DNA of 64,000 nt from Vicinamibacteria bacterium (GCA_964291235.2 OZ219816.1:1952001-2016000); one strand, 5' to 3'. Shown: positions 11,943 to 63,891, counted from the stretch's first letter. Made by a program: numbers and translations. The notes: a model not told the origin generated them from the sequence alone.

Positions 11943-12955
11943 CCTTGCCGCTGCCGGCCAGCGGGCTGGTGCGTGGCTGTTGGCAGTTGTCGCGAGGGCA
12001 TGGGCCCGGGTGGAGCCGTGAGCGCGCCTTCGCCGCTCTCGACGAGGCCGCCGCTCGGCCGGGGCCACTCTTCCTTGACTGCGCCGACATCTACACGGGC
12101 GCAGAGCAACTCCTCGGCGACTGGTTGGCGGCCCGGCCCGCGTCCGCCGGGCAGGTGGTCGTGTTCACCAAGTTCGTACCGGATCTGGACGCGCTGGCCG
12201 CCATCGACCGGAGCTACGTGCGCGACATCGTCCTCAGGTCCCGTGACCGGCTCGGCGTGGAGGCGCTGGATTTGGTCCAGTTCGCCTGGTGGGACCTCTC
12301 CCACCCGGGGTGGCTGGGCGCGGCGGAGTGGTTGACGGAACTCGGCGAAGAAGGGGTTGTGCGCAAGATCGGGGTGACCAACTTCGACTGCGACGCACTC
12401 ACTGCTCTCCTGGACGCCGGAATTCCAGTGATCTCAAACCAGGTCCAGTTCTCGCTGCTGGACCGGCGGCCGCGCAAGGGCATGACGGACTTGTGTCTCC
12501 AGCGCAACGTGACACTGCTCTGCTACGGGGCGCTCGCGGGCGGCTTGCTCTCAGATTCGGCCGGTGCCCGGGCGCCGTCGCGCTCGCTTGTCAAGTACCG
12601 CCTCATCGCCGACGAGGTGGGGGGCCACGCGGTGCTGGAGCGGGCGTGCGCAGCGCTCGCGGAGGTGGCCGGCCGGCACCGTTCCACCATGGCCGACGTG
12701 GCGGTGGCGTATGTGCTGCGCCAGCCCGCAGTCGGCGCGGTGATCGTCGGGCTGAGCCGCAGGGGCCGGGCGGTGGGCGCGCGGCGCCTGCGCCTCGAAC
12801 CGGACGACGAGCGGCGGCTGGAGGCGGCGGTTCCCGGAGAGGTGCCGGGCGAGGTCTTCGGGGTCGAGCGCGACCGCAACGGCCCGCACGGCCGCATCAT
12901 GCGATACAACCTCAACCGCGAAGGTTCGGGGCAGGTACGGGCAGAGTACGGGTGA
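11939..12955 (+). CDS. Aldo/keto reductase family protein
   Basis: ATGA overlap; 'GCWQLS', 'DCADIYTGAE', 'TKFVP', 'IGVTNFD', 'NQVQFSLLDRRP'. Confidence 0.88.
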   Translation: MTLPLPASGLVRGCWQLSRGHGPGWSRERAFAALDEAAARPGPLFLDCADIYTGAEQLLGDWLAARPASAGQVVVFTKFVPDLDALAAIDRSYVRDIVLRSRDRLGVEALDLVQFAWWDLSHPGWLGAAEWLTELGEEGVVRKIGVTNFDCDALTALLDAGIPVISNQVQFSLLDRRPRKGMTDLCLQRNVTLLCYGALAGGLLSDSAGARAPSRSLVKYRLIADEVGGHAVLERACAALAEVAGRHRSTMADVAVAYVLRQPAVGAVIVGLSRRGRAVGARRLRLEPDDERRLEAAVPGEVPGEVFGVERDRNGPHGRIMRYNLNREGSGQVRAEYG

Positions 12956-41436: not shown

Positions 41437-41515
41437 CGGGGTCAGTCTATCGAGAGGTTTCCGCATGATGCACCGCATTCTGCAAGACCCGCGCCACCGC
41501 ATTTTCGGAGGCCGT

Positions 41516-41544
41516 TTGCCCATCCCCCGGAGCCTCCATAGAAT
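41516..41544 (+). promoter_or_regulatory. Sigma70-type promoter of the DUF1553-DUF1501 operon
   Basis: TTGCCC-N17-TAGAAT, followed by RBS GGAG and ATG 41571. Confidence 0.6.
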
Positions 41545-41570
41545 GGCCTATTCGGAGACGTAACACGCGT

Positions 41571-43511: not shown

Positions 43512-43521
43512 GGGGTTGAAT

Positions 43522-44934
43522 ATGTGCACCTGCGAGCCCCGCGTCGCCGATCTCCTCCCGGCCCGCCGGGAAGTCCTCAAGATGGGCGGGCTGGCGCTCG
43601 CCGGATCCTTCGTCAACCAGGTCGTCTGGCCACTCAAGGCGCACGCGAACGGGAAGACGAATCCGCGGCGCACCGCCCGCTACTGCATCTTCATCGAGAT
43701 GGGCGGCGCGATCAGCCCCATGGATACCTGGGACTTCAAGCAGACCCGCTGGACCCCCAAGGATCTGGACATGGTCCAGATCAACGATGAGGTCTCACTG
43801 TCCCGGGCCCTCTTCCCGACGCTCGTGGACCGGGTGGACGAGGTCGCCTTCGTGCGCTCGATGCGGGCTCCGGAGCTGATTCACTTCAACGGGCAGTACC
43901 ACACCCAGACCGGCCGGGTGCTGAACGTGGCGCTCGCCCGTGAGGTCCCCGCTTTCGGGAGCATCATCGCCGCCGAACTCGACAAGGAGCGGCGCGAAAC
44001 GGACAGCTTCCCGACCTATGTCAGCACCTATCTCACCCGGGCGCGCGCCGGATCCATCGGGGCAGGCTTCCTGCCCACGCGGTTCTCCGGCCTCGACCTC
44101 GACCCGACCACGGTCTTCGACTCGTTTGGGGGCAACGTGGAGGGCAGCCGGCGGGTGCTCGAAGAGCGCTTCCGCCTGCTGAACCGGCTCGCCGAGGTCT
44201 CCATCCCGGAGCGGGCCTCGCTCGGGGACAAGGAAAACGACTATCGGGACTACTACAAGTCCGCCTACGGGCTGCTCACCGACGAACGTTGGCCGAAGCT
44301 CTTCGTCGCGAGCGATCAGGACAAGGCGCGCTACGGTGAGGACGAGTTCGGTCTCGGCTGCATCCTCGCGCGCAACCTGCTCGAAGCCGACGCCGGCACC
44401 CGCTTCATCTACATCTACGACGGGGACAAGTGGGACCACCACGCCGGCATCTTCGACCGCTCGCGCACCTGGAACCATTACACGACCTGCCCGCGGCTGG
44501 ACAAGGGGTTCACTTCGCTGCTCACCGACCTCGGCGCCCGCCCGGGCAGCGAACCCGGTACGACTCTCCTCGACGAGACGCTCATCGTGGTCACCAGCGA
44601 GTTCGGCCGTACCCCGGAGATGAACCCGGTGGCCGGCCGCGACCACTACCGCTTCGCCTACACCAGCATGTTTGCGGGGGGAGGGGTCCAGGGTGGCCGG
44701 GTGGTCGGCAAGACCAACGAAGACGGTTCGGAAGTCATCGATCCCGGCTGGAAGCATGACGGGCAGCCGTTCATGGACAACACGGTGGCGACCATCTACT
44801 CGGCGCTGGGCATCGACTGGAAGAAGGTGGTCCACAACACCCCGTCGGGCCGCGAGTACGTGTACGTGGATTCGGTCTCGCTCGGCGGGTCGGAGATGAT
44901 GTTCGCCGACGAGATCGCCGAGATCTTCGCCTGA
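43522..44934 (+). CDS. DUF1501 Tat-exported protein
   Basis: Twin-Arg 'RREVLK'; 'MGGAISPMDTWD', 'WDHH', 'SEFGRTP', 'GRDH', 'AGGGVQGG'. Confidence 0.9.
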   Translation: MCTCEPRVADLLPARREVLKMGGLALAGSFVNQVVWPLKAHANGKTNPRRTARYCIFIEMGGAISPMDTWDFKQTRWTPKDLDMVQINDEVSLSRALFPTLVDRVDEVAFVRSMRAPELIHFNGQYHTQTGRVLNVALAREVPAFGSIIAAELDKERRETDSFPTYVSTYLTRARAGSIGAGFLPTRFSGLDLDPTTVFDSFGGNVEGSRRVLEERFRLLNRLAEVSIPERASLGDKENDYRDYYKSAYGLLTDERWPKLFVASDQDKARYGEDEFGLGCILARNLLEADAGTRFIYIYDGDKWDHHAGIFDRSRTWNHYTTCPRLDKGFTSLLTDLGARPGSEPGTTLLDETLIVVTSEFGRTPEMNPVAGRDHYRFAYTSMFAGGGVQGGRVVGKTNEDGSEVIDPGWKHDGQPFMDNTVATIYSALGIDWKKVVHNTPSGREYVYVDSVSLGGSEMMFADEIAEIFA

Positions 44935-49652: not shown

Positions 49653-50600
49653 CTACCGGGACGACAGGCTGCGGTGGACCAGGCGCACAAAGCGTTCGGC
49701 GTTCACGAACCCGGCGGCATCGGGGGACCAGCCGATGTCCGTGCCGATCCCGGTGACCAGCGCGACGTAGTCGGCAGCGGCGTCATCCTCACTCTGGCCG
49801 GCGGCGACGCGCTCGCTGATCCGCTCGCGGGCCATCTTGAGGGCCTCCGCGTACTTCATCAGGTTGGCGCGGTCGGTGACCGGGCCGTGGCCGGGAATGA
49901 TCTTCGTCTGGCCGTCGGTTGCCCCGGCGACCTTTTCCGCGGCCGCGATCAGGCCGTCAACATGCCCCCCGGAATCCACATCGATGAACGGGAAGGCGCC
50001 GTTGAAAAACAGATCTCCCATGTGGACGACGTTGGCGCCCCGGAAAAAGATGATGGAGTCACCGTCGGTATGGGCGGTGGGAGCGTGGACCGCCTCGATG
50101 GCGAGACCGTTCCAGTGCAGGGTGACGCCGTGCTCAAAGGTCACCACCGGCAGCGCTTCCGGAGCCGCCTGGTCACTGCGGCCAACCAGGTCGGCGAATT
50201 CCGCCGGGTTCATCCGCCGCCGCACGTTTTCGTGGGCGACGATCAGGCTGCCCGCCTTCCCGAGATTCTCGTTCCCCCCGGTGTGGTCGCCGTGCCAGTG
50301 CGTGTTCACCACGAAGCGCACGGGATCGGTAGTAATCGCGCGCACCGCGGCGAGGATCTTGTCGGTGAGAGGCGCGTACTGGTCGTCCACCAGCAGAGCG
50401 CCGTCGGCGCCGGTGGAGAGACCGATGTTGCCCCCGCGCCCGAAAAGAACGTGGACGCCGCCGCCCAGGTCCTCACTGGTGATCGCGACCGCGTCCCAGT
50501 CCTGGTCCTGGGCCGCCACCGGCACTGCGGCAAGCAATAGGCAGATGGCGAAGAGGGCAAACCGCCACGGGCGGCGATGGGATGGATCAGTCAGGAACAT
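49653..50600 (-). CDS. Exported MBL-fold metallo-hydrolase (cyclase-like)
   Basis: Signal peptide; 'GGNIG', 'NTHWHGDHTGGN', 'AHTDGD', 'HMGD', 'IPGHG'. Confidence 0.9.
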   Translation of the reverse strand: MFLTDPSHRRPWRFALFAICLLLAAVPVAAQDQDWDAVAITSEDLGGGVHVLFGRGGNIGLSTGADGALLVDDQYAPLTDKILAAVRAITTDPVRFVVNTHWHGDHTGGNENLGKAGSLIVAHENVRRRMNPAEFADLVGRSDQAAPEALPVVTFEHGVTLHWNGLAIEAVHAPTAHTDGDSIIFFRGANVVHMGDLFFNGAFPFIDVDSGGHVDGLIAAAEKVAGATDGQTKIIPGHGPVTDRANLMKYAEALKMARERISERVAAGQSEDDAAADYVALVTGIGTDIGWSPDAAGFVNAERFVRLVHRSLSSR

Positions 50601-50678
50601 GGCGAAACAAACTCCGGAAGAGGGACACGCGTGGCCACCGGGGTCCCGGCGGCCTGACGAAGGACCCGGCGAGGGAAA

Positions 50679-52487
50679 TCAGCAGCCGACGCAGGCGTTG
50701 TTGTTCTGGGCGCCGTAGCTGGCGAGGAGCGCGATCGTCTCCGGGAATGGATTGATGCGCTGAACGGGGCCGTTGGCGAGGTCGATGGTCGTCTGCCCCG
50801 TGCGGGCCACCGCGAGCGGATCCGCACCGTGGTCGATCAGGTACTGCACCATCTCGGTGTGGCCGCGGGAGGCCGCGTGGTGGATGGTGGTGTAGCCGTT
50901 GTGGTCGCGCACGGCTGCATCGGCGCCCACTTCCTCCACGAGGTACTGGACCGCCGGGAGCCAGGCCTCCGGCGCGTGCCGGTGGGAGTTCGCCGCGAGT
51001 CCGAGGCCATAGCCCACCCCGGCCGCGGCATGGATCGGATACACCGCCGGATCGCCGTACTCGGCCGGCGGCAGGCCGGACGGATCCGGATCTCCCTCCT
51101 CGATGAGCATCGGCAGACGCCGCCGCTCCGCCACCTTGACGGTCGGGATGTGGGGGTCGGCGCCGTTCGCCACCAGCAACTTCATCGCCGGGATGTCCAG
51201 CGCGTAGGCAGCGCGCCAGAAGGCGGTCGCTCCGCTGCGGTCCACCCCGAGCTGGTCCACGTTGTAAACGGTGTACCAGAGCGAGCTGTCGATGCGGGCA
51301 TTCACGTCGGCCCCCGCGTCGATCAGCGCCTGAATGAGCTCAAGGTGGGACGTCTCCTGCTGGAGATAGTCGGCGGGCTGCGGGTGACGGGCCTTCGGAA
51401 TCCACTGGGTGTTGACCGCCCCGTAGAGCGGGGTGGCGTTTTGCGAATCCGCGAGGGTCGGGTCGCCGCCGCGCTCGAGCAGTTTCATGGCCAGGTCGAA
51501 ATGGCCGTTCACGGTCGCCATCAGCAACGGGGTGGTGCGGCTCCCCTCGGCGCGCTGGTTCACGTCGGCGCCCGCGTCGATCAGCGCCGTCGCGGTCTCG
51601 ATCCGGCCCTCGCGAGCCGCAAAGAGCAGCGCGGTCAATCCACCGTGGGTGCCGACGCGGTCCTCATAGGTGAGCGGCCGCGGCTCGTCGGGATCCCGCC
51701 GGTCGTACTCGTCCGGGTTCAGGGGATCCGGCGGAAGGCCCGCGGCCCCCGTACCTCCCGTTCCGGAAGGCCGGCGGTCCGTCCCGTTGGCGGGGAGCGG
51801 GCGCTCGGCCTGCAGGATGCCGCTTCCGCCGCGCTGCTCGGCAAGGCGCGCCTGCCGTTCGCGACGTTCTTCCATGTCCAGCCGCGCGCGCTCGACCACG
51901 TCCAGCACTCCGGCGGTCACCGAGGCGTCGGCACCGGCGTCCATCAGGGTCTTGACCGCCGCGACCCGGCCCCGGACCGCCGCGAACATCAGCGGAGTGA
52001 GCCCCCATTCCTCCTCCCGCGCGTCCACGGAAGCCCCGTGGGCGAGCAGGGAAGACACCACCTCCGGCACCCCTGCGGTCGCCGCCAGGTGGAGCGGTTG
52101 GGCTCCGGTCGAAGTGAAGGGGTCCGCCGGAGCCCCCGCCAACAGCAGGGCCTCGGCAACGCCCGCCTTCCCGGCCGCCGCAGCCACATGGAGCGGCATA
52201 TGGCTTCCCAGCCGCGTCGTCGCCTCAAGATCCGCACCGGCCGCGATCAACACCTCGGCAACCTCGCGGTTCCCCGTCTTCGCCGCCCAGTGGAGCGCCG
52301 TAAAGCCGTCGCCCTGCGCCGCGTTCACGTCCGCTCCCGAACGGAGCTCCACCTTCAGGGTCTCGACGTCACCGCGCTTCGCCGCATCCAGAACGGGGGA
52401 CATCAGCGCCGCGTACCCCACTCCGACCAGCACGCCCACCACCGTGAGCAGCGCCGCCAGGCCAATCCATCGCTTTCCGATCTTCAT
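50679..52487 (-). CDS. Exported ankyrin-repeat protein (copy 2)
   Basis: Signal 'MKIGKRWIGLAALL'; many 'G.TALH.AA..G...A..L...GADVN' repeats; C-terminal 'NNNACVGC'. Confidence 0.9.
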   Translation of the reverse strand: MKIGKRWIGLAALLTVVGVLVGVGYAALMSPVLDAAKRGDVETLKVELRSGADVNAAQGDGFTALHWAAKTGNREVAEVLIAAGADLEATTRLGSHMPLHVAAAAGKAGVAEALLLAGAPADPFTSTGAQPLHLAATAGVPEVVSSLLAHGASVDAREEEWGLTPLMFAAVRGRVAAVKTLMDAGADASVTAGVLDVVERARLDMEERRERQARLAEQRGGSGILQAERPLPANGTDRRPSGTGGTGAAGLPPDPLNPDEYDRRDPDEPRPLTYEDRVGTHGGLTALLFAAREGRIETATALIDAGADVNQRAEGSRTTPLLMATVNGHFDLAMKLLERGGDPTLADSQNATPLYGAVNTQWIPKARHPQPADYLQQETSHLELIQALIDAGADVNARIDSSLWYTVYNVDQLGVDRSGATAFWRAAYALDIPAMKLLVANGADPHIPTVKVAERRRLPMLIEEGDPDPSGLPPAEYGDPAVYPIHAAAGVGYGLGLAANSHRHAPEAWLPAVQYLVEEVGADAAVRDHNGYTTIHHAASRGHTEMVQYLIDHGADPLAVARTGQTTIDLANGPVQRINPFPETIALLASYGAQNNNACVGC

Positions 52488-52563
52488 GCCCTTACCTCTC
52501 TTGCTGGTCAGTCTGTTCCGGTGGGTTCGTTTCCTGTGGGTTTGGGCTGTGGATCTCTCCCGG

Positions 52564-53952
52564 CTACACCGCCTGCGACAGGGAGAACGCTCCGGTGCTG
52601 TTCCCGAAGGTCTCCACATCATCCAGCCCCAGCTTGTGCAGCAACGTCAGCATCACGTTCGCCAGCGGGGTTCCCGGCTTGGCCCGCAGGTGCAGATTGT
52701 GCTCGAGCGCGCCGTTGGCGCCGCCCGCCACGAAGAACGGAACCCGCTTGTGGTTGTGGATGTTCGGGTCGCCCATCGGAGACCCGTAGAGGATCATCGT
52801 CTTGTCCAGCATCGTCCGATCGTCTTCCTCAATGCTCCGCAGCTTCTCCATGAAGTAGGGAACCAGGCTCACGTGATACCGGTTGATGCGGCCGAGGACC
52901 TCGACGCGCTCGGGATCGTTCCCGTGGTGCGAAGCCGGGTGGAACGCGGTGGCTTCGCCGCTCTCGGGGTACACGCGGCTCGACGCGTCCCGTCCCAGCT
53001 TGAGGCTGAACACCCGGGTCATATCCGACTGGAAGGCGAGCGCCTGCAGGTCGAACATGATCTTCACGTGCTCGTCGAACGAATCCGGCACCCCTGACGG
53101 GGCGTCGGGAAGCTCGCGAAGCTCGCCGCTCGTGTTCCGCTCGACAATCCGCTGGATCCGCCGCTCCATCTCCCGGATGTCGGTCATGTAGCGGTCCATC
53201 CGGCGCAGATCCTGGGGGTCCAGCGCGGTCTTCAACCGGCTCACCTCGGAGCCGATGAAATCGAGCACGCTCTGGCGCGCCTGCTGCCGGGCCACACGAC
53301 CTTCGGGGGTGCCCCCCGCCCCGAACAACTGGTCGAAGACGATCCGCGGATCCCGGGTCATCGGGAGCGGCTCCGTCGGCGACGCCCAACTGATGGTGTC
53401 CGTGTACACGCAGGCATACCCGTAGGCGCAGCCGCCCGCCTGGTCCACCGTCTCGATGCAGAGCTGCATCGAGGGAATCGGCGTGTCCTGGCCGAAACGC
53501 TGCGCGTACATCTGGTCCAGCGAGGTTCCCGCGAACACATCCGAACTCTCGGTCTGCTTGGGATACGACTGGGTCAGGAACGCCGCGCTGGAACGGAAGT
53601 GGTCGCCGCCGATCTCGCGCGCGGTGCGCGCCTCCGCGGGCTCCACGTCGCAATCGCTCACGATCGTGACGTAATCCCGAACCGGTTCCAGGGAACTGAG
53701 GGCGCCCTTCGAAAGATCGAAGTCCGCGCCTTCCTGCTCCGGCGTCCACAGATGCTGCGAGCGTCCGTACTTGTTGCTGCCGGCTGCGCCGTGCACGATC
53801 TCGATCGCCACGAGCCGCGTCGGGTCGTCGGCGGTCGGTTTCGCCATCACGCTCGCCGGAACCATCGCGTCCAAGAACGGGAGCGCCACCGTTGCTCCCG
53901 CTCCGCGAAGGAACGTACGCCGGGGAAGGCTCTTGCCGGTCAGGTAGTTCAT
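52564..53952 (-). CDS. DUF1552 (HXXSHH) Tat-exported protein (copy 2)
   Basis: 'PRRTFLRGAGATVALPFLDAM' Tat signal; 'GCAYGYACVY..TISW', 'FHPASHH'. Confidence 0.9.
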   Translation of the reverse strand: MNYLTGKSLPRRTFLRGAGATVALPFLDAMVPASVMAKPTADDPTRLVAIEIVHGAAGSNKYGRSQHLWTPEQEGADFDLSKGALSSLEPVRDYVTIVSDCDVEPAEARTAREIGGDHFRSSAAFLTQSYPKQTESSDVFAGTSLDQMYAQRFGQDTPIPSMQLCIETVDQAGGCAYGYACVYTDTISWASPTEPLPMTRDPRIVFDQLFGAGGTPEGRVARQQARQSVLDFIGSEVSRLKTALDPQDLRRMDRYMTDIREMERRIQRIVERNTSGELRELPDAPSGVPDSFDEHVKIMFDLQALAFQSDMTRVFSLKLGRDASSRVYPESGEATAFHPASHHGNDPERVEVLGRINRYHVSLVPYFMEKLRSIEEDDRTMLDKTMILYGSPMGDPNIHNHKRVPFFVAGGANGALEHNLHLRAKPGTPLANVMLTLLHKLGLDDVETFGNSTGAFSLSQAV

Positions 53953-54069
53953 GGTGTTCTCCTGTCAGGGCGTCCCGGCCGTCGTGTCCGCGGACGGCGG
54001 GACTGGAGTCTGCGCGCGGGGATGGGCTCCCCACAAAGTACGGGATCGTTGAGCTCCCATAGCCGGACT

Positions 54070-54098
54070 AGGATAGGAAATCAACCGGCCCGGCGCAA
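54070..54098 (-). promoter_or_regulatory. Internal sigma70-type promoter upstream of DUF1552 copy 2
   Basis: Minus strand TTGCGC-N17-TATCCT; palindrome CAATCGATTG just upstream (54103-54112). Confidence 0.6.
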
Positions 54099-54216
54099 GC
54101 GGCAATCGATTGGTCGGAAGCGCTCGGAGAAAGACCGCGGGACACCGCCCGGGCCCACGGGAACCGGGCGGGCTCGACGCGTGGCGCGGCGCCGCGTCCC
54201 CTGGAAGGGCAGAAGC

Positions 54217-56736
54217 TCAGGGCTCGTCCGCGACGGTGGTTTCGATCTCTTCGAGCACCTCGCCCTTCATCTGGAAGGCAGGGCTCTCGACGACCCCCAG
54301 GATGAACGCGGACATCCGGTAATCGGAGTCTTCCGCCTCCCGAACGATCTCCCGAATCCGCGGCTGGTCGAAGTACTCCACCCGCCGGCCGAGCGCATAC
54401 GCCATCAGGTTCTCGGTGAACGTTCGCAGCAGCGGGGTCGGACGCTTCAGGAGCGCCTCCCGCAGATCGCCGATGTCCTGGATCGGAGTTCCGTCATAGA
54501 ACTCACCCGACGCATCGATCGGCTGGCCGGCGTCCTTCACCCGCACGCGCCCCGTCACGTCGAACTGCTCGAGCGCCAGCCCGATCGGATCCATCATCCG
54601 GTGGCACGAGCGGCACGCCGGGTTGTCGCGGTGGATCTCCAGCCGCTCCCGGGCGGTCAGTTCGCGACCGCCGTCCGCGGCCGCCGTCGCGTCCAGGTCC
54701 GGAACGTCCGGCGGCGGAGGCGGCGGCGGACTCCCGAGCAGGACCTCCATCACCCACTTCCCACGAAGCACCGCGGACGTCCGGTAGGGATGCGACGTCA
54801 GCGTCAGCATGCTCCCGTGGGCGAAGATCCCGCGCCGGTTCGGATCCTGATACTCCACCATCCGGTGCTCCGGACCGGTGACCCCCACCATCCCGTAGTG
54901 TTTGGCGAGACGCTCGTTCACGAACGTGTAGTCCGCAGTGAACAGGTCAAAGACGCTCTTGTCCTCAGACACCAGGTGGTGGAAGAAGCGCTCGGTCTCC
55001 TCGACCATCGCGGTCTTCAACTGCTGGTGGAAGTCCGGGTAGAGCCGCACGTTCGGGTTGATCTTCTTGAGATCCTGCAGCCGGAACCACTGATAGGCGA
55101 AGCGCTTCGCGAGCGCCTCCGAGCGGGGGTCCGCCAGCATCCGGCGAACCTGGGTCTCGAACCCGGCGGGTTCCGACAACTGGCCCGACTCGGCCGCATC
55201 CAGGAGTGCATCGTCGGGGATCGTTCCCCAGAGGAAGAACGAAAGCCGTGACGCCAGGTCGAAGTCCGTCAGCCGATAGCCGAACTCGGCCTCCCGCGGG
55301 TCCAGCGGTTCCTCGATCCGGAACACGAAGTTGGGGCTCGCGAGGATTCCCTCGACCCCCATGCGGATCCCTTCCTCGAAGCCAACCGTCTCGGCCCCCG
55401 CGTCGTAGAGCGACATCAGCGCCGCCAGACCTTCTTCATCCATCGTCCGGCGATAGGCCAGCCGGCCCAGCCGCGACAGGATCTGCTCGGCGCAGGGGCG
55501 CGCCTCGTCCGGTGACAGCGGACGACAGTTGAAGATCGCCTGCCGGCTCGGCGTTTCCGAAACCCCGGTCGTGTCGAACGGACCGCGAATCAGGACGTCC
55601 CGGAGGTGCGGAAGGCTGTGGATGCCATAGGTGAGCGCGATGTTGGTGCTCGCGAGCGACCACTCGTGCGGCGAGATGAGATCCAGCGTCGTGCCGTCGA
55701 ACTGGCGCAAGAAGGCCGCCGCCACCGTCCGGGGACCGGCCTTGACGAAGATCGGCTCGGTGATCATCGTCGCGCCATCAGGATCGGAGGTGTGCATCCA
55801 CGGATCGATCGAGAGGAGCGCGACCCGCTCCCCGTCAATGGAGATCTCGAGCTGCTCGGGATTCTCCTCCGAATTCAGCGCCCCTACCGCGGTGCCGACC
55901 ACGGGGCCGCACACTTCATGATGGAGGGAAACCCGGAACACGTAGTTCCCGTCCGCGGCGAAGGTGTGATCCGCCGCGATCCCGCCCCGCGTGCCGTAGG
56001 GCGCGCCTTCGACCTGGCGCCGCTGGGAGGCCCAGCGGGAGACGAAATAGCTGGTTTCGGCCGGTGCGGCGTCCGGATCCCCTACCGCCAGCCGGCTGAT
56101 TTCGCTGGCCGCGCGCAGATAGGAGTCCATGAGCGTCGCCGACAGCAACTGGACGTCCGCGATGTTGTCGAAGTTCGCGCTGATGGTGTCTTGCGGCAGG
56201 TACTCGGCCGCGTCCAGATCGAGCGCCAGCAGATCCCGGATGGCCGCCGTGTACTCGGCTCGGTTCAGCCGCTGGAAGGAACGGCGGCCCGGGTTCGGCG
56301 CTTCCTCCGCGCTGGTGTCGAGCTGGTCCTCGAGCGATTCGGCGACTTCTGCCAGTGTTTCCTCGGCGGGCCGCCGGGCGCCGGGTGGAGGCATCATCCC
56401 AAGCCGCAGCTTCGAGACCATTTTCTCGGCCAGCGCCGCGCTCTCGGGTGCGTTGCCGGCGTCGAAGCCGGAGAGCGTCATGTTCCCGGTCTGCATCCGG
56501 TCGTTGTGGCAGACCATGCAGTAGGTCCGCAGCATCCGGTTGTGGGCCGCCGCGTTCTCCGGGGAAACGGCTGGAGCGGTTTCCCCCGAAGAAGCGGGTT
56601 CCCAGGATCTGGCAGCCTCGAGCGTCGGCGCCTCGAGCGACGAAGCGGCCGGCGCCGCCAGCAGACCGGCGAAGAGGAACGGAATCAGGGAAAGCCGGCT
56701 GGCTTTTCCTGCCGCATCAATCCGGGAACTCCCCAT
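54217..56736 (-). CDS. DUF1587/1592/1595/1588/1585 diheme c-type cytochrome-domain protein (copy 2)
   Basis: Signal peptide; CxxCH 'CMVCH' and 'CRSCH'; 'MMPPPG', 'RLNRAEY..AIRDLL', 'LASRLSFFLW..IPD', 'TSAVLRGKWV', 'YALGR'. Confidence 0.9.
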   Translation of the reverse strand: MGSSRIDAAGKASRLSLIPFLFAGLLAAPAASSLEAPTLEAARSWEPASSGETAPAVSPENAAAHNRMLRTYCMVCHNDRMQTGNMTLSGFDAGNAPESAALAEKMVSKLRLGMMPPPGARRPAEETLAEVAESLEDQLDTSAEEAPNPGRRSFQRLNRAEYTAAIRDLLALDLDAAEYLPQDTISANFDNIADVQLLSATLMDSYLRAASEISRLAVGDPDAAPAETSYFVSRWASQRRQVEGAPYGTRGGIAADHTFAADGNYVFRVSLHHEVCGPVVGTAVGALNSEENPEQLEISIDGERVALLSIDPWMHTSDPDGATMITEPIFVKAGPRTVAAAFLRQFDGTTLDLISPHEWSLASTNIALTYGIHSLPHLRDVLIRGPFDTTGVSETPSRQAIFNCRPLSPDEARPCAEQILSRLGRLAYRRTMDEEGLAALMSLYDAGAETVGFEEGIRMGVEGILASPNFVFRIEEPLDPREAEFGYRLTDFDLASRLSFFLWGTIPDDALLDAAESGQLSEPAGFETQVRRMLADPRSEALAKRFAYQWFRLQDLKKINPNVRLYPDFHQQLKTAMVEETERFFHHLVSEDKSVFDLFTADYTFVNERLAKHYGMVGVTGPEHRMVEYQDPNRRGIFAHGSMLTLTSHPYRTSAVLRGKWVMEVLLGSPPPPPPPDVPDLDATAAADGGRELTARERLEIHRDNPACRSCHRMMDPIGLALEQFDVTGRVRVKDAGQPIDASGEFYDGTPIQDIGDLREALLKRPTPLLRTFTENLMAYALGRRVEYFDQPRIREIVREAEDSDYRMSAFILGVVESPAFQMKGEVLEEIETTVADEP

Positions 56737-56745
56737 GGTGGCGCC

Positions 56746-58728
56746 TCAGCAACCCACGCAGCGGTTGTTGTTCTTGGCCCCGTAACCCTCGAGGAGCGCG
56801 ATGGTTTCCGGGAAGGGGTTGATCCGCTGCGCCGGGCCGTTCGCCAGATCCACGGTGGTCTGCCCGGTCCGGGCGACCGCCAGCGGATCGGCGCCCTTGG
56901 AGATGAGGTAGAGGATCATCTCGTTGTCGCCCCGGGAGGCCGCGTGGTGGATCACGTTGTAGCCGTTGTGGTCGCGGGCATCCGGATCGGCGCCCAGTTC
57001 CTCCACGAGGTACTTGACCGCCGGCAGCCACGCGTCCGGCGCGTGCCGATGCGAGTTCGCCGCCAGTCCAAGCCCGTAGCCCACCCCGGCAGCGGCGTGG
57101 ATCGGATGGACCCCCGGGCCCCCGTAGGGAACCTCGGGGAGGCCCGAAGGATCCTCCTCGGGTTCTTCCGCCGTCAGATCGGTCAGCCGGCGAAGGACCC
57201 GCTCCGGCACCTTCTGCGTCGGGATGTGCGGGTCCGCCCCGCGCGCGACCAGCATCTTCATCACTGGAATGTCGAGCGCATAGGCCGCGCGCCAGAACGC
57301 TGTCGCACCGGCCCGGTTCACGCCGAGCTGGTCCGTGTTGTAGGTGGTGTACCACTGCTTCCGTTCCAGCCGGGCATCGATTTCCGCACCGGCGTCGAGG
57401 AGAGCTTCCATGAACTCGATGTGCGAGGTCTCCTGCCGGAGGTGATCCGCGGGCTGCGGATGGAACGGCTGGGCGATCCAGCGAGAGTTGATCGCGCCGT
57501 AGAGCGGCGCCCCGCCGGAGACGTTCGTCAGGTTCGGATCCGCGCCGCGCTCCAGCAGCTCCATTCCGATGTCGTAGTGGCCGTTGATGGCCGCCATCAG
57601 GAGCGGCGTGGTGCGGTGCCCCTCGGCCCGCTGGTTGACGTCGGCCCCGCCGTCCACGAGGGCGACGGCGGTTTCCAGATGCCCGTCACGAGCGGCAAGC
57701 AGTAGCGCGGTGAGGCCCCCGTGCGTACCCACGAGTTCCGCATAACGAAGTGGCTGCAGGCGGTCGCGATTCCGCGCCCGCGCCGCTCTCCGCTTCTTCG
57801 CTTCTTCGATGGCCTTGGCCCGGGCCAGTTCATCCTCGGGGTGGCCGTGGGCCGCGGCGTGCTCGTCCTCCTCCGCGGCGACTTCTTCCGCCGTCGGCTT
57901 CTTCAGGTCGGCGAGGTCGGCGGAACCGCCGGTGGACGCAGTCAACGGCGCTTCCTCAGTGCGGCCCTTCTCCTTCGCCGCCTTGGCAGCTGCCGCGCGC
58001 GCCCGGCGCTGAGCCGCCTTCGCCCGCTTGTCCCGTTCCCGCTCGTCGTAGATCACGTCCGCGCCGCCGCCCCGCTCACGGGCGATCCGCTGCTGCCGGG
58101 CGCGGCGGGCAATCAGATCCTGTTCGGCGCGGGCGGCGACATCGAGCACCGCGGCGGTGACCGCGGGATTCGCTCCGACTTCGAGGAGCGTCTCGACCGC
58201 GGCGGTGCGGCCAATGCCGGCCGCGAACATGAGCGGCGTCTGGCCCCACTGGGGCTCCACGGCGTCCACGTCCGCCCCGTGGCCAGCAAGCACGGTAACC
58301 GTCGCCGGGTCACCGGACGCCGCGGCGAAATGGATCGCGCGAGCACCGGTTTCGGTCGCTACCGCCACTGGGGCTCCGGCCGTCAGGAGGATTTCGGCGA
58401 CCTCCGCCTGTCCTGCCGCCGCCGCCACGTGAAGCGGCATGTGGCTTCCCAGGCGCGTCGTGGCGCGAATGTCCGCACCAGCGAAAATCAGGAGTTCGGC
58501 AACCTCGCGGTTTCCGTTCTTGGCCGCCCAGTGGAGGGCGGTGAACCCGTCACCCTGGGCCGCGTTCACGTCGGCGCCCGAGCGCAGCTCCGCTTTCAGA
58601 GCTTCCACGTCACCGCGCTTCGCGGCATCCAGCACCGGCGCCAGCCGGGCCGCATACCCGGCGCTCACCAGGATGCCGAGTGCGCAGCAAAGCGCAACCA
58701 AGCCAACCCATCGCTTTCCGATTTTCAT
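56746..58728 (-). CDS. Exported ankyrin-repeat protein (copy 1)
   Basis: Signal 'MKIGKRWVGLVALCC'; ankyrin repeats; C-terminal 'NNNRCVGC'. Confidence 0.9.
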   Translation of the reverse strand: MKIGKRWVGLVALCCALGILVSAGYAARLAPVLDAAKRGDVEALKAELRSGADVNAAQGDGFTALHWAAKNGNREVAELLIFAGADIRATTRLGSHMPLHVAAAAGQAEVAEILLTAGAPVAVATETGARAIHFAAASGDPATVTVLAGHGADVDAVEPQWGQTPLMFAAGIGRTAAVETLLEVGANPAVTAAVLDVAARAEQDLIARRARQQRIARERGGGADVIYDERERDKRAKAAQRRARAAAAKAAKEKGRTEEAPLTASTGGSADLADLKKPTAEEVAAEEDEHAAAHGHPEDELARAKAIEEAKKRRAARARNRDRLQPLRYAELVGTHGGLTALLLAARDGHLETAVALVDGGADVNQRAEGHRTTPLLMAAINGHYDIGMELLERGADPNLTNVSGGAPLYGAINSRWIAQPFHPQPADHLRQETSHIEFMEALLDAGAEIDARLERKQWYTTYNTDQLGVNRAGATAFWRAAYALDIPVMKMLVARGADPHIPTQKVPERVLRRLTDLTAEEPEEDPSGLPEVPYGGPGVHPIHAAAGVGYGLGLAANSHRHAPDAWLPAVKYLVEELGADPDARDHNGYNVIHHAASRGDNEMILYLISKGADPLAVARTGQTTVDLANGPAQRINPFPETIALLEGYGAKNNNRCVGC

Positions 58729-58779
58729 GGCCGTCCCTCTCCGTTTGTTGAAAGTCTTCGCCTCGGGATACCCCACCAC

Positions 58780-60168
58780 CTAGACCGCCTGCGACAGCGA
58801 GAAGGCGCCCGTGCTGTTCCCGAAGGTCTCCAGGTCATCCATCCCCAGCTTGTGCAGCAATGTGAGCATCACGTTCGCGAGTGGGGTCCCGGGCTGGGCC
58901 CGCAAGTGCAGGTTGTTCTCGAGCGCGCCGTTCGCACCGCCCGCCACGAAGAACGGAACCCGCTTGTGGTTGTGGATGTTCGGGTCCCCCATCGGAGACC
59001 CGTAGAGGATCATCGTCTTGTCGAGGAGTGTCCGATCCTCTTCCTGAATGCTCCGTAGCTTCTCCATGAAGTACGGAATCAGGCTCACGTGATACCGGTT
59101 GATCCGGCTCAGGATCTCGACGCGCTCCTCATCGTTCCCATGGTGCGACGCGGGGTGGAACGCCGTGGGCTCGCCGCTGTCCGGAAACACCCGGCTCGAC
59201 GCGTCCCGGCCCAGCTTGAAGCTGAACACCCGGGTCATGTCCGACTGGAAGGCCAGCGCCTGCAGGTCGAACATGATCTTCACGTGCTCGTCGAACGAAT
59301 CCGGCACCCCTGAAGGCGCGTCCGGAAGCTCCCGCATCGCCCCGCTGGTGTTCCGTTCCACGATCCGCTCGATCCGCCGCTCCATCTCCCGGATGTCCGT
59401 CAGGTAGCGGTCCATCCGGCGCACGTCCTGCGGGTCCAGCGCGGCCTGCAGGTCGCGAACCTCTTCGCCGATGAAATCCAGGACGCTCTGCCGCGCCGTC
59501 TGCCGGGCGATCCGGCCCTCCGGGGTACCTCCCGCGCCGAACAACTGGTCGAAAACGATCCGCGGATCCCGGGTCATCGGGAGCGGCTCCGTCGGCGATG
59601 CCCAACTGATGGTGTCGGTGTACACGCACGCGTATCCGTAAGCGCAGCCACCCGCCTGATCGACGGTTTCGATGCAGAGCTGCATCGAGGGGATCGGGGT
59701 GTTCTGGCCGAAGCGCCGCGCATACATCTGATCGAGCGAGGTTCCGGCGAAGACGTCGGATCCCTCCGTCTGCCGCGGATGGGAGGCGGTCAGGAACGTC
59801 GAACTCGAACGGAAATGGTCCCCGCCGATCTCCCGTGCGGTCTCGGCCTCCGCCGGCTCGTTGTCGCAGTCGCTCACGATCGTGACGTAGTCCCGGACCG
59901 ACTCGAGGGGACTGAGCGAACCCTTCGACAGGTCGAAGTCCGCGCCTTCCTTCTCCGGCGACCACAGATGCTGATCGCGGCCGTACTTGTTGCTGCCCGC
60001 CGCGCCGTGCACGATTTCCACCGCCACGAGCCGGGTCGGATCCTCGGCCGTCGGTTTGGCGATCACGCTCGCCGGAATCATCGCGTCCAGGAACGGCAAC
60101 GCGACCGTCGCCCCCGCTCCCCGCAGGAACGTGCGGCGTGGAAGGCTCTTACCGGTCAGGTAGTTCAT
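58780..60168 (-). CDS. DUF1552 (HXXSHH) Tat-exported protein (copy 1)
   Basis: RBS AAGGAG; Tat 'PRRTFLR'; 'FHPASHH'; near-identical to copy 2. Confidence 0.9.
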   Translation of the reverse strand: MNYLTGKSLPRRTFLRGAGATVALPFLDAMIPASVIAKPTAEDPTRLVAVEIVHGAAGSNKYGRDQHLWSPEKEGADFDLSKGSLSPLESVRDYVTIVSDCDNEPAEAETAREIGGDHFRSSSTFLTASHPRQTEGSDVFAGTSLDQMYARRFGQNTPIPSMQLCIETVDQAGGCAYGYACVYTDTISWASPTEPLPMTRDPRIVFDQLFGAGGTPEGRIARQTARQSVLDFIGEEVRDLQAALDPQDVRRMDRYLTDIREMERRIERIVERNTSGAMRELPDAPSGVPDSFDEHVKIMFDLQALAFQSDMTRVFSFKLGRDASSRVFPDSGEPTAFHPASHHGNDEERVEILSRINRYHVSLIPYFMEKLRSIQEEDRTLLDKTMILYGSPMGDPNIHNHKRVPFFVAGGANGALENNLHLRAQPGTPLANVMLTLLHKLGMDDLETFGNSTGAFSLSQAV

Positions 60169-60233
60169 TGCGGTCTCCTTGTGGTCAGTCTGACGTTGTC
60201 GGTTGGCTTCCCGTCGGTTTCGCTTCAGGACTC

Positions 60234-62771
60234 CTAGTGCTCCGCGGCGGCCGTCGTTTCGGTCTCGGCTTCGACCCGGCCCTTCATCTGGAAGGCCGGG
60301 CTCTTCGCCACCCCGAGAATGAACGCCGACATCCGGTAGTCGGATTCCTCCGCCTCCCGAACGATCTCCCGGATCCGCGGCTGGTCGTAGTACTCCACCC
60401 GCCGTCCTAGCGCGTACGCCATCAGGTTCTCGGTGAACGTCCGCAGCAACGGCGCCGGACGCTTCAGGAGCGCCTCCCGCAGGTCTCCGATGTCCCGGAT
60501 CGGGGTTCCGTCGTAGAACTCGCCCGACGCGTCGATCGGCTGGCCGGCATCCTTCACCCGGACCCGGCCGGTGACGTCGAACTGCTCGAGCGCCAGCCCG
60601 ATCGGGTCCATCATCCGGTGGCACGAGCGGCACGCCGGGTTGTCCCGGTGAATCTCCAGGGCCTGGCGCGCGGTGAGTTTCTTGACCGTCTCACCTGATT
60701 CCCCGGAATCGAGGTCCGGAACGTTGGGCGGCGGGGGCGGCGGCGGGCTCCCGAGCAGCACCTCCATCACCCACTTCCCGCGAAGCACCGCCGAGGTCCG
60801 GTAGGGATGCGACGTCAGCGTCAGCATGCTCCCGTGGGCGAAGATCCCGCGCCGGTTCGGATCCTGATACGCCACCATCCGGTGCTCCGGACCGGCGACC
60901 CCCTTCATCCCGTAGTGGTGCGCGAGCCGCTGGTTCACGAACGTGTAGTCGGCGGTGAAGAGATCGAAGACGCTTTTGTCCTCCGCCACCAGGTGGTGGA
61001 AGAAGCGCTCGGTCTCCTCGACCATCGCGGTCTTCAACTGCTGGTGGAAGTCCGGGTAGAGCCGCACGTTCGGGTTGATCTTCTTGAGATCCTGCAGCCG
61101 GAACCACTGGTAGGCGAAGCGTTTCGCCAGCGCTTCCGAGCGGGGGTCCGCCAGCATCCGGCGAACCTGCGTCTCGAACCCGGCGGGTTCCGACAACCGG
61201 CCGGCCTCGGCCGCATCCAGCAGCTCATCGTCGGGGATCGTCCCCCAGAGGAAGAACGAAAGCCGCGACGCCAGATCGATGTCCGTCAGCCGATAGCCGA
61301 ACTCGGCCTCCCGCGGATCCAGCGGTTCCTCGATCCGGAACACGAAGTTGGGACTCGCGAGGATTCCCTCGATCCCCATCCGGATCCCTTCCTCGAAGCC
61401 GACCCGCGAGACCCCCGCGTCATAGAGCGACATCAGCGAGTCGAGGTTGCGCTCGGTGAGACTGCGCCGATACGCAAGGCGCCCGATACGCGAAAGGATC
61501 TGCTCGGCGCAGGGACGCGCTTCGTCCGGCGAGAGCGGGCGGCAGGTGAAGATGGCCCGGCGGCTCGGCGTCTCGGACACCCCGGTCGCATCGAAAGGAC
61601 CGGTCATGAACAGATCCCGCAGGTGGGGCACGTTGTGGATGCCGTAGGTCCGGGAGGTCGCGGTGCTGGCAAGGGACCATTCGTGCGGAGAAATCAGGTC
61701 GAGGACCGGCCCCTCGTAGTGCTTCAGGAAGACCGCTGCCACCTTCCGCGGCCCGCCGCGCACGAAGACCGGTTCGGTCCGCAGGTTGACGCCGTCCGGG
61801 TCGGAAACGTGCATCCAGCGTCCCACGTCCACCAGCGCCACCCGTTCACCGTCAACGGAGATCTCGACCTGCTCCGGTTTGTCGAAGGTGTGGAGCGAAC
61901 TCGATCCCGAACCCACGATGGCGCCGGTGGTCTCGTGGTGGAAGGCAACCCGGAACCGGTACTCCCCATCCGCCGGAAAAACGTGGTCCACCACGATCCC
62001 GCCGCGCGTTCCGTAAGGGGCCCCTTCGACCTGATCCAGTTGTTCGGCCCAGCGGGACACGTGATAGCCGGATTCAGCCGCCACCGCGTCCGCGTCTCCG
62101 ACGGCGAGGTAGCTGATTTCACTCGCGGCGCGCAGGTAGGAATCCATGAGCGTCGCGGAGAGCAACTGGACGTCGGCGATGTTGTCGAAGTTGGCGCTGA
62201 TGGTGTCCTGCGGCAGGTACTGCGCGGCATCCAGCGGGAGATCGAGCAAGTCGCGGATCGCCGCGCTGTACTCGGAACGGTTCAGCCGCTGGAACGAACG
62301 GCGTCCGGGATTCGGGTTCTCGGCGGCGCTGAGGTCAAGCTGCGTCTCGAGGGACTCGGCAACTTCGGTGAGCATCTCCTCGCCCGGACGCCGCGCGCCC
62401 GGCGGCGGCATCATCCCGAGCCGGAGCTTCGAAACCATCTTCTCCGCGAGCGCCGGATTGGCCGGAGCGTCTCCGGCGTCGAAGCCGGCGAGCGACATGT
62501 TGCCCGTCTTCATCCGGTCGTTGTGGCAGACCATGCAGTAGGTCCGGAGCATCCCGTTGTGCGCCGCGGCGGTTTCCGCGTTCAAAGAGCCGGCTTCGGA
62601 GGCGGAAGCCGGACCCGAACTTTCCGGGGTCCAGGTGCGGGCGGAGGCGACCGTGGGAAGACCCGATCCGGCGGGCCCGGAGCCCGGCCGTTCTCCGGCG
62701 TTCGCCAACGGCGACAACACGAAGACGCCCGCGCTGAGGGACCACGCGGCGACGAAAGTGAGTAGGCGCAT
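60234..62771 (-). CDS. DUF1587/1592/1595/1588/1585 diheme c-type cytochrome-domain protein (copy 1)
   Basis: Start 'MRLLTFVAAW' signal; 'CMVCH', 'CRSCH'; same motifs as copy 2. Confidence 0.9.
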   Translation of the reverse strand: MRLLTFVAAWSLSAGVFVLSPLANAGERPGSGPAGSGLPTVASARTWTPESSGPASASEAGSLNAETAAAHNGMLRTYCMVCHNDRMKTGNMSLAGFDAGDAPANPALAEKMVSKLRLGMMPPPGARRPGEEMLTEVAESLETQLDLSAAENPNPGRRSFQRLNRSEYSAAIRDLLDLPLDAAQYLPQDTISANFDNIADVQLLSATLMDSYLRAASEISYLAVGDADAVAAESGYHVSRWAEQLDQVEGAPYGTRGGIVVDHVFPADGEYRFRVAFHHETTGAIVGSGSSSLHTFDKPEQVEISVDGERVALVDVGRWMHVSDPDGVNLRTEPVFVRGGPRKVAAVFLKHYEGPVLDLISPHEWSLASTATSRTYGIHNVPHLRDLFMTGPFDATGVSETPSRRAIFTCRPLSPDEARPCAEQILSRIGRLAYRRSLTERNLDSLMSLYDAGVSRVGFEEGIRMGIEGILASPNFVFRIEEPLDPREAEFGYRLTDIDLASRLSFFLWGTIPDDELLDAAEAGRLSEPAGFETQVRRMLADPRSEALAKRFAYQWFRLQDLKKINPNVRLYPDFHQQLKTAMVEETERFFHHLVAEDKSVFDLFTADYTFVNQRLAHHYGMKGVAGPEHRMVAYQDPNRRGIFAHGSMLTLTSHPYRTSAVLRGKWVMEVLLGSPPPPPPPNVPDLDSGESGETVKKLTARQALEIHRDNPACRSCHRMMDPIGLALEQFDVTGRVRVKDAGQPIDASGEFYDGTPIRDIGDLREALLKRPAPLLRTFTENLMAYALGRRVEYYDQPRIREIVREAEESDYRMSAFILGVAKSPAFQMKGRVEAETETTAAAEH

Positions 62772-63075: not shown

Positions 63076-63891
63076 TCAGGCGTCGAGATCGCAGAGGACC
63101 GGCGCGTGGTCCGAGGGAACGTCGTCTCCCTTCTTCTGACGCCGCTCATCCCGGTCCACCCGCACTCCGCCGATCCGCCCGATCAGCGGGGCCGTCAGGT
63201 AGATGTGGTCGATGCGGGCGCCCACGTTCCGGGCGAACGCCAGGCGGGTGTAGTCCCACCACGTGTAGAGGCCCTTCTCGGGCTCCTCCCCTTCGGCATA
63301 GACCCGCCGATACGCGTCCGCGAGCCCCCAGGCGACAAGGTCGGCGAGAGCGGCGCGGGCGTCCGGATGACAGAGCACCCCACCCGGGTCCGCGGTCGCG
63401 GAATCGCGGTCGGTAGGCGCCACGTTGAAGTCCCCGCAGAGCACGAGCGGCTCCGAGGGATCGGCGTTCGTTGCGAGGTGGTCGCGGAGGGCTCGCAGCC
63501 ACTCCAGCTTGTACTTCCAGTCCTCGACCCGGGTCACCGCCTTTCCGTTCGGAACATACGCGGTGATGACCCGAGCGCCTGCGATCCGGACATCCAGCAG
63601 CCGGGCCTCACCCCGCGACCGGCAGGGGGGCAGGCCGCGCGCCAGCACCTCGGGCGACTCGCGCGCCAGCACCGCCACCCCGTTTCGCGCGGCCTGGGCG
63701 TGGACCACCGCACGGTAGCCGGCCGCCTCGACGTCCAGCCAGGGAAAGGTCTCCGCGGGGGCGCGAAGCTCCTGCAGGCACAGGACGTCGGGTTCGTGCC
63801 GCTCCAGGAGCCGCAGCAGGCGAGCCCGGCGGGTGCGGATCGAATTCAGGTTCCAGGTGATAACGCGCAAGGACGAAGCGGGCCGGATCAT
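63076..63891 (-). CDS. xth: Exodeoxyribonuclease III / AP endonuclease
   Basis: 'ITWNLNSIR', 'LCLQE', 'NGVAVL', 'YVPNG', 'GDFNVAP', 'YTWWDY', 'RIDH', 'PSDHAPV'; true start may be TTG 63870. Confidence 0.93.
   Translation of the reverse strand: MIRPASSLRVITWNLNSIRTRRARLLRLLERHEPDVLCLQELRAPAETFPWLDVEAAGYRAVVHAQAARNGVAVLARESPEVLARGLPPCRSRGEARLLDVRIAGARVITAYVPNGKAVTRVEDWKYKLEWLRALRDHLATNADPSEPLVLCGDFNVAPTDRDSATADPGGVLCHPDARAALADLVAWGLADAYRRVYAEGEEPEKGLYTWWDYTRLAFARNVGARIDHIYLTAPLIGRIGGVRVDRDERRQKKGDDVPSDHAPVLCDLDA

Follow-up and report, generated by a model that had tools for sequence, protein, structure and literature searches.

A tandem array of three exported components

The window analysed here is a 64,000-nt stretch of a genome labelled Vicinamibacteria bacterium (GCA_964291235.2, OZ219816.1:1952001-2016000). 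It has a G+C content of ~69% and lies on contig 2 of a genome of 3.45 Mb, and its nearest protein relatives, by their source labels, are Gemmatimonadota (Longimicrobiales, Candidatus Palauibacter). On the minus strand, from position 62771 down to 49653, lie seven open reading frames (ORFs) separated by gaps of 9 to 264 nt, in which the same three genes occur twice in a row: one for an exported DUF1592 protein with two CxxCH motifs (component A), one for a DUF1552/HXXSHH protein with a putative twin-arginine leader (component B), and one for an exported ankyrin protein with a cysteine tail (component C). The full order is A1-B1-C1-A2-B2-C2, followed by a gene for a metallo-β-lactamase (MBL)-fold hydrolase (Table 1). 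An initial annotation had described this order as present twice on one strand with intact ORFs, and both the coordinates and the absence of internal stops agree with that description. We read the array as two old tandem copies of an envelope module that combines a metalloenzyme, a cytochrome and an ankyrin partner dedicated to them, and give this reading a probability of about one half; the binding of haem and metal, the transfer of electrons, the assembly of a complex and the substrate are the parts of it that we infer.

Component A1 matched five Pfam families in the order PSD3, PSD5, PSD4, PSCyt3 and PSD2 (70, 65, 166, 115 and 77 bits, against cut-offs of 23-34), and A2 matched alike. The motif CRSCH inside PSCyt3 is, by sequence, a haem c attachment motif, and exactly two CxxCH motifs occur at fixed places in 93 of 94 A orthologues, one near the N-terminus and the other in PSCyt3. 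No Pfam family matched the middle region. Atlas clusters with the carbohydrate-binding module (CBM) CBM60 between PSD3 and PSD5 scored 0.86-0.87 against it, which we take as a lead only, and an Atlas search with the whole of A1 gave nothing at 0.9 or above, with leads below that value to CBM60 and PSCyt1/2 clusters. The A1 sequence had no meaningful match in the PDB (best E ~1), and no NCBIfam model matched A or B.

Components B1 and B2 scored 271 and 266 bits against Pfam HXXSHH/DUF1552 (PF07586), for which the gathering score is 30; the family as a whole comprises 14,032 representatives at 50% identity (E<=1e-3). The motifs named in the initial annotation could all be located in the translations, with two CxxCH in each A, HPASHH, GDH and HNH in B, and a CVGC end in C. 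HPASHH is present in B1 and B2 alike, and HxxSHH in 111 of 113 members of the clade. Among the same 113 proteins, H118, H295, H338, H342, H399, H401, H421, C175 and C181 are invariant, and S341 of HxxSHH is at least 90% conserved among B homologues. Two further descriptions of B call for comment. For the Tat (twin-arginine translocation) signal, B has the candidate leader RRTFLRG, with R11 and R12 each kept in 90% or more of a set of 92 diverse homologues, and the Pfam TAT_signal model reached 16.6 bits, below its cut-off of 22.7. As for the four conserved cysteines, this is right for the invariant C175 and C181, with C165 following in 102 of 113 sequences, and wrong for the cysteine of SDCD (C101), found in only 10.

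Components C1 and C2 scored above the Pfam gathering thresholds for Ank_2 (172 and 178 bits) and Ank (160 and 169 bits). Each consists of a hydrophobic leader, two ankyrin blocks around a low-complexity linker, and a C-terminal tail; the leader, like the Sec (general secretion) signals assigned to A, C and the MBL protein, was judged by eye. Two cysteines of the tail are invariant in an 83-sequence alignment, and an exact CxxC C-terminus is found in 68 of 87 C orthologues, most of the others having the same motif 1-5 residues from the end. Among the C tails printed, NNH frequently precedes the terminal cysteine pair. C1 has an alternative in-frame GTG start at 58779. C is the fastest-evolving of the trio, and within the window the identity between unit 1 and unit 2 is 81% for A, 90% for B and 61% for C.

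Table 1. Features of the array and of its surroundings in the window.
Feature	Coordinates	Strand	Length (aa)	Description	Basis or position
A1	60234-62771	-	845	Exported, two CxxCH; middle region type alpha. Domain order: N-terminal cytochrome c-like part, PSD3, variable middle (~aa 225-415), PSD5, PSD4/DUF1592, PSCyt3/DUF1588 (second CxxCH), PSD2	Pfam, motif reading
B1	58780-60168	-	462	DUF1552/HXXSHH, putative twin-arginine leader, predicted alkaline-phosphatase-superfamily fold	Pfam, AlphaFold2 model
C1	56746-58731	-	661	N-terminal ankyrin block, low-complexity linker, type 1 C-terminal ankyrin block, NNRCVGC end	
A2	54217-56736	-	839	A1 paralogue, middle region type beta	
B2	52564-53952	-	462	B1 paralogue, 90% identical	
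C2	50679-52490	-	603	C1 paralogue, type 2 C-terminal ankyrin block, NNACVGC end	
MBL-fold hydrolase	49653-50600	-	315	HWHGDH motif, hydrophobic N-terminus	78 nt past C2, same strand
DUF1549/DUF1553 (PSCyt2/PSD1) protein	41469-43511	+		Followed by the DUF1501 protein	~5 kb from array
DUF1501 protein	43504-44934				
Exodeoxyribonuclease III	63076-63891			Unrelated housekeeping gene	Upstream of array

Linkage of the ankyrin gene to the A-B pair

Counting triads per genome, a check proposed with the initial annotation, gave exactly four DUF1552, four PSD4 and four full-length C matches in this genome, all of them in four A-B-C triads; in other words, each of the four B loci is a triad. The four C matches scored 735-887 bits, the six other ankyrin matches in the genome being weak and partial, and the paralogues A3 and A4 gave weak Cytochrome_CBB3 matches. 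The A-B-C order was held in 18 of 20 regions from genomes of the same family or order, the exceptions being a lone B (L053) and a B with a fragment of A (L054). Beyond the family and order, loci were taken from the best 80 of 595 confirmed B relatives in species-representative genomes, found with a 16-sequence alignment as query and all at least 55% identical. These 80 come from Gemmatimonadota and Acidobacteriota (Vicinamibacterales, Bryobacterales, Pyrinomonadaceae, Terriglobia), together with one metagenome-assembled genome labelled Gammaproteobacteria and one labelled Bifidobacteriaceae.

Neighbours were counted for 113 full-length B genes in 99 loci, 111 of which have at least 700 nt of downstream sequence, and a distance rule defined which genes lie directly next to B. 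A C gene is directly downstream in 104 of these 111, a count that covers the subfamily of B at least 55% identical and not all of DUF1552. In two of the seven misses a C gene does follow, either just past the distance rule (L080) or ~3 kb further on (L042). The other five comprise the B of the first pair in L072, the leading B in L079, where the order is B-B-C, and the lone B genes of L053, L054 and L135. An A gene lies directly upstream of B in 97 of 107 cases; some of the misses are due to the distance rule, and two loci (L044, L048) are truly without A. When the flanking ORFs were clustered, only A, B and C recurred, in 94, 86 and 80 of 103 sources. The next cluster, found in 22 loci, looks from its example to be antisense to B, and all others occur in at most 8 loci. 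The triad therefore travels alone through changing neighbourhoods.

We also looked at presence and absence in a phylum sample of 251 genomes. B was found in 52 of these and a strong C (E<=1e-60) in 30, each of which also has B, whereas the 199 B-less genomes are all without C. One unpublished genome (G089), with B and no strong C, is included in these counts, and only in them; it is one of 22 such genomes. Together with the four triads of this genome and the 104 downstream C genes, the 30 of 30 genomes in which C is accompanied by B strengthen the earlier proposal that the ankyrin gene is a dedicated partner. As a statement about the whole family the proposal fails, since it holds for a part of DUF1552 only. 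Among 20 loci from genomes with B and no strong C, 8 have a much more divergent full-length ankyrin gene (190-227 bits) beside A-B, its position and orientation varying between loci. An unrooted tree of B with 76 rows, built with a quick method, places the B proteins of canonical triads in one clade of 51 rows, with a support of 99 in the Shimodaira-Hasegawa-like approximate likelihood ratio test (SH-aLRT), and the ankyrin-less B proteins in another with a support of 95, which has 13 rows and includes one B with a divergent ankyrin gene close by. Because the tree is unrooted, gain and loss of the ankyrin partner look the same in it.

Ankyrin repeats are typical of effectors, and the relatives of this bacterium include sponge-associated bacteria, which raises the question whether the C genes are eukaryote-like host effectors that lie beside A-B by chance. 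A similarity to the NCBIfam models of Legionella Dot/Icm Ank effectors would point the same way, yet at best 84 bits against a cut-off of 600 it is far below threshold and amounts to generic repeat similarity. The linkage data already contradict this explanation, which we consider very improbable: the same full-length C follows B in soil, freshwater and sediment Acidobacteriota and Gemmatimonadota, the full-length C genes of this genome all stand in triads, and C is absent from the B-less genomes of the phylum sample. C-type ankyrin genes will likely be counted as "eukaryote-like" host-interaction genes in symbiont genomes, a reading that their linkage to the module in free-living bacteria makes wrong for these genes.

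The pair itself is known already. PSCyt and PSD domains were reportedly first defined in Rhodopirellula baltica, by Studholme in 2004. DUF1592-DUF1552 pairs were noted as recurrent, with their function unexplained, in freshwater Verrucomicrobia in the main-text parts of PMC5615132, so the description of the system as undescribed, made in the initial annotation, does not stand for the pair. Ankyrin is not mentioned in those parts, which do not include the supplements with the neighbourhoods (Fig. S7, Text S1). Nor is an ankyrin partner mentioned in the papers found by DUF or domain names, supplementary neighbourhood figures excluded, and a term search of the Palauibacterales paper returned no ankyrin, DUF, sulfatase or cytochrome c. 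The dedicated ankyrin partner is thus without description in the papers found. Those found by family names assign no function to the DUF1552/DUF1592, PSCyt3/PSD or DUF1501/1549/1553 families, again with supplements excluded. Known PSCyt3/PSD + DUF1552 pairs share with the array the same five Pfam domains in A, the same B family and the same A-then-B order, and differ in that a full-length exported ankyrin gene is the constant third gene here, whereas the pairs on Planctomyces, Chondrinema and Sphingobium plasmids are A-B without an ankyrin gene. On a Novosphingobium megaplasmid, A-B is followed by a gene for a 456-aa ankyrin protein, the B there being only 38% identical. DUF1552 and its cytochrome partner are long-standing "planctomycete-specific" unknowns that are abundant in soil, freshwater and marine bacteria, and a constant third partner offers handles on them: a three-protein set, an invariant cysteine tail, and a natural division into constant and variable parts, which hints at the seat of specificity.

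Three side observations concern the copies of B elsewhere. A 9.2-Mb genome of the same order (G036) has 33 DUF1552 matches, ~20 of them with near-identical scores and 520-aa frames, which look like a gene multiplied on a repeated element; the copy fetched (L054) has the C-terminal fragment of A and no ankyrin gene. Ten other Sphingobium plasmids have a near-identical B match (H4-H13). In three related genomes of one genus with ankyrin-less A-B pairs, and only there, a leucine-rich-repeat protein gene lies beside B on the opposite strand (L140, 8913-9833; L143; L144).

Age and homogenisation of the two units

The arrangement A-B-C-A-B-C was found in all 11 genomes of the same genus that were examined, and in one genome from each of 4 other genera of the family, some with insertions, and more distant Gemmatimonadota also have tandem arrays. 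Identities between the units were determined for 16 arrays from 5 genera, and differ strongly along the unit. They are highest for B (90-100%), followed by the C-terminal half of A (82-100%), its N-terminal part (72-96%) and its middle region from PSD3 to PSD5 (65-76%), with 70-75% for the C-terminal ankyrin block of C (ANK-C) and 26-41% for the C linker. In one array (L042), a DNA stretch of ~2.4 kb that begins in mid-A and extends to the end of B has 100% identity in the two units, the mark of gene conversion and not of constraint alone. B and the C-terminal half of A are closer within a genome than between genera, and comparisons of the same unit across genera give the same values as comparisons across units. 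These two parts have therefore evolved in concert.

The remaining parts behave in the opposite way. The ANK-C block falls into two types, with identities across genera of 82-95% inside one type against 70-75% from one type to the other, and the positions of the two types in the array are always the same. The middle region of A likewise falls into two types (77-96% within, 64-76% between), the order of which is swapped in three genera. Judged from these alignments, the duplication is old, and the types of A middle and of C predate the genera. Every genome with an array has the two A types and the two C types alongside the homogenised core, although not in fixed adjacent pairs. The proposal that the paralogues differ in specificity, made in the initial annotation, gains from this combination of a homogenised B and C-terminal half of A with two old types of A middle and C that have been kept.

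We also considered that the tandem duplication might be an assembly artefact, or very recent and functionally meaningless. Short-read contigs do end within conserved stretches of A and B, as such an explanation would have it. Against it stand the presence of the tandem arrangement in 16 of the 16 arrays examined, in 5 genera, and the fact that each type of C and of A middle is more similar to its counterparts in other genera than to the other type. Contigs of three sequencing runs also bridge the junction between C1 and A2; considering that they come from one study, possibly that of the source sample, they do not count as independent support. The tandem arrangement is not an assembly artefact, and we give the artefact or recent-origin explanation practically no weight.

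Several smaller features of the arrays may be recorded here. Insertions are found at different places: ~6 kb between A2 and B2 in G018 (L173, 9100-15400), ~3 kb between B2 and C2 in G019 (L042, 14974-17918), and 2-4 kb between the units, from C1 to A2, in G017 and G022 (L171, L172). In the window, the spacer between A2 and B2 (53953-54216) is 264 nt long, vs 65 nt between A1 and B1, and has a weak terminator-like hairpin at 54100-54088; promoter and terminator scans of the array did not rise above shuffled sequence, and hairpins were no commoner than in the shuffles. The six tandem genes (50679-62771) favour G over C at third codon positions more than most genes do. With a G3-C3 skew of -0.01 to +0.05, compared with a genome mean of -0.10, they rank at the 86th-96th percentile among 1138 long ORFs. 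Values peak at +0.1 to +0.26 in the C-terminal half of A, which is homogenised, and triads 3 and 4 are ordinary in this respect.

Fold of component B and candidate functions

A single-sequence AlphaFold prediction of B1 reached a predicted local distance difference test (pLDDT) of only 32, and an AlphaFold2 model of B from a 92-sequence alignment of diverse representatives reached a pLDDT of 91.4 and a predicted TM score of 0.92. The Foldseek search of B that had been proposed earlier, run with this model, returned 59 PDB matches at E<=1e-3, with a probability of 1.00, TM scores of 0.32-0.40 and identities of 8-12%; every row listed is a sulfatase or another protein of the alkaline-phosphatase superfamily. 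VIA, which is independent of Foldseek, aligned 265-286 residues with a Z score of 16.1 and a root-mean-square deviation of ~4.1, and its matches to sulfatases, nucleotide pyrophosphatases/phosphodiesterases (NPPs), PafA, EptA/MCR-1 and LtaS were essentially tied. B is thus predicted to have the fold of the alkaline-phosphatase superfamily and, because these structural matches tie, to lie in no characterised branch of it. What B has in common with type I sulfatases, NPPs, PafA and phosphoethanolamine transferases is the core fold (Z 14-16 over ~250-285 residues). It differs from them in an identity of only ~10%, in the lack of a sequence-level match, and in the absence of the sulfatase motif C/SxPxR from the mature protein. 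Neither the B1 sequence nor the 92-sequence profile had a meaningful match in the PDB (best E ~1). [CS]xPxR occurs anywhere in 18 of 113 B proteins; of the 12 matches printed, none is at a conserved mature position, 10 being the leader's SLPRR or SVPRR and the other 2 falling at residues 44 and 464.

A profile-profile comparison with hhalign found B and DUF1501 to be homologous over 372 columns (probability 93.9%, E 1.6e-7), with HxxSHH opposite WDHHS and YGS...DGNxHxH opposite SEFGRTP...GRDH. B had no match to Pfam DUF1501 (PF07394) even at E 10. Since homology is found at the level of profiles and a match to PF07394 is not, the B family is, by these comparisons, a sister of DUF1501 and not a member of it, which ties two unexplained cytochrome-partnered systems into one problem. 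In B, a metal site is plausible from the conservation of H118, D146, D231, D248, H338, S341, H342, H343 and H399.

The following mechanism would accommodate these results. B, taken from its leader to be Tat-exported, would probably cross the membrane folded and loaded with a cofactor or metal, and is the likely catalytic subunit. A, apparently exported by Sec and with two haem c attachment motifs, would most likely exchange electrons with B, as donor or acceptor. Because relatives carry CBMs in the slot of its variable middle region, that region of A probably recognises the substrate or a partner. C, also apparently exported by Sec, would be a dedicated third component, acting as a scaffold or adaptor or as a periplasmic assembly factor that uses its cysteine tail. 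In both units a constant core of B and the C-terminal half of A is kept alike by gene conversion. The units differ in C and in the middle of A, and this suggests that one chemistry is directed to two different targets. That A, B and C act together we regard as very likely; that the chemistry of the triad is redox we put just short of even odds. On a Sphingobium herbicidovorans plasmid (L139, 5385-10368), a short DUF1592 gene without the N-terminal third and a DUF1552 gene are followed by genes annotated as cytochrome c, a cytochrome b/b6-domain protein and a short-chain dehydrogenase/reductase, and these genes, which may be a membrane electron route for the pair, are the clearest hint from gene context at such a path.

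The main rival to this reading is a plain hydrolase with accessory proteins. B would then be an ordinary metal-dependent hydrolase of phospho-, sulfo- or phosphono-esters, A would bind substrate, anchor or sense, with haems that are structural or regulatory, and C would be a scaffold. The fold of B matches hydrolases and transferases throughout, the conserved S341 could be the nucleophile, and CBMs are found on relatives of A: PSCyt proteins often carry them according to the parts of PMC5615132 considered here, and a table row of PMC6004670 annotates an A-family protein with CBM2. An ordinary hydrolase of this fold is less easily squared with the missing sulfatase motif and the lack of any sequence-level match of B to a solved hydrolase, or with the conservation of both CxxCH motifs in all but one of the A orthologues, which points to working haems. 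The cytochrome c and cytochrome b genes after the Sphingobium plasmid pair also speak for an electron path. We consider the hydrolase explanation rather unlikely.

A second alternative concerns C, which might be a transient periplasmic assembly factor whose His/Cys tail delivers metal, or reduces or isomerises cysteines (e.g., C175/C181 of B or the haem-binding cysteines of A). Such a role would be like the one reportedly proposed for AnkB, encoded beside the catalase KatB in Pseudomonas. Its invariant terminal cysteine pair, often preceded by NNH, its apparent Sec export, its fast evolution within the trio and the presence of an invariant cysteine pair in B are all compatible with such a role. 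One C per A-B pair and two long-conserved C types, however, fit a stoichiometric, type-specific partner better, and a Tat-exported B should reach the periplasm already folded. This role for C, too, seems to us improbable, at about the level of the hydrolase explanation. A prediction of the complex of B2 (residues 40-462) with C2 (residues 30-603), run with separate alignments for each and without controls, gave an ipSAE of 0.00 in both runs and is evidence neither for nor against an interaction.

The metalloenzyme-cytochrome reading can be extended to a bolder form, a three-component periplasmic oxidoreductase that would be the first redox enzyme on an alkaline-phosphatase fold. In this form, a His-rich metal centre of B would be wired to the respiratory chain through the haems of A, the cysteine pair of C would be a swinging redox or metal arm at the active site of B, and the targets would be set by interchangeable A-middle and C types. 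We regard this as a long shot, less probable than either of the two alternatives above.

Several points weigh against the module as we read it, in its modest form as well. To our knowledge, the characterised members of the alkaline-phosphatase superfamily are all hydrolases, transferases or mutases, with none redox, so that a cytochrome partner is unexpected and B may simply be a hydrolase; a cytochrome partner and Tat export are likewise not known to be typical of these enzymes. The clustering of the conserved His and Asp residues of B at the canonical metal site is an expectation from sequence. The swapped pairing of A-middle and C types in three genera speaks against a strict lock-and-key fit of A with the adjacent C. 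The remaining 12 of the 20 loci from genomes with B and no strong C are A-B without any ankyrin gene, so C is not needed by every DUF1552 member, and no conserved third gene replaces C in these 12 loci or in the plasmid A-B neighbourhoods. There are, finally, B-C pairs without a nearby A (L044, L048) and B genes that stand alone (L053, L054, L135).

Two known proteins invite comparison with the module. AnkB of Pseudomonas aeruginosa is said to be a periplasmic ankyrin-like protein encoded beside the catalase KatB, which it has been proposed to support; from such descriptions it resembles C as an exported ankyrin protein next to a haem enzyme, the partner being of another family and AnkB far smaller than C. 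Cbp2D of Cellvibrio japonicus has DUF1587 (PSD3) beside c-type cytochrome domains, one of which can reduce lytic polysaccharide monooxygenases in vitro (PMC8981238, in the parts considered here). This reduction links the set of PSD3 and cytochrome domains to extracellular electron transfer at polysaccharides. Cbp2D differs from A as another multidomain protein, with CBM2, X158, X183 and X132, and the same parts of that paper mention neither a DUF1552 partner nor ankyrin.

The MBL gene at the end of the array scored 61 bits against Pfam Lactamase_B (cut-off 22.7), with HxHxDH present as HWHGDH. Its best NCBIfam model, SoxH_rel_PQQ_2, reached 92 bits, below the cut-off of 280, and the bla subclass B1-B3 models reached 28-42 bits vs cut-offs of 200-240. 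In two loci from one genus of the same family, L044 (G020, 5891-12188) and L048 (G024, 5227-10590), B-C is followed by an 85%-identical orthologue, present in two copies in L044; there is no A within ~10 kb upstream there, and the long upstream ORFs are without a Pfam family. We rejected the gene as a general fourth member, considering that the 85%-identical orthologues follow C only in these two loci and that any MBL match was found in 7 of 151 loci; it is a neighbour specific to certain lineages.

The window also holds, on the plus strand, a DUF1549/DUF1553 gene followed by the only DUF1501 gene of the genome (Table 1). This pair resembles A and B in that a protein with a Tat-type leader, homologous to B, is encoded just after a PSCyt-type protein, and differs in that the partner cytochrome has other domains and in that no ankyrin gene follows the pair in the window. 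In two other loci (L141, L142), a DUF1549/DUF1553-DUF1501 pair lies directly upstream of an A-B pair.

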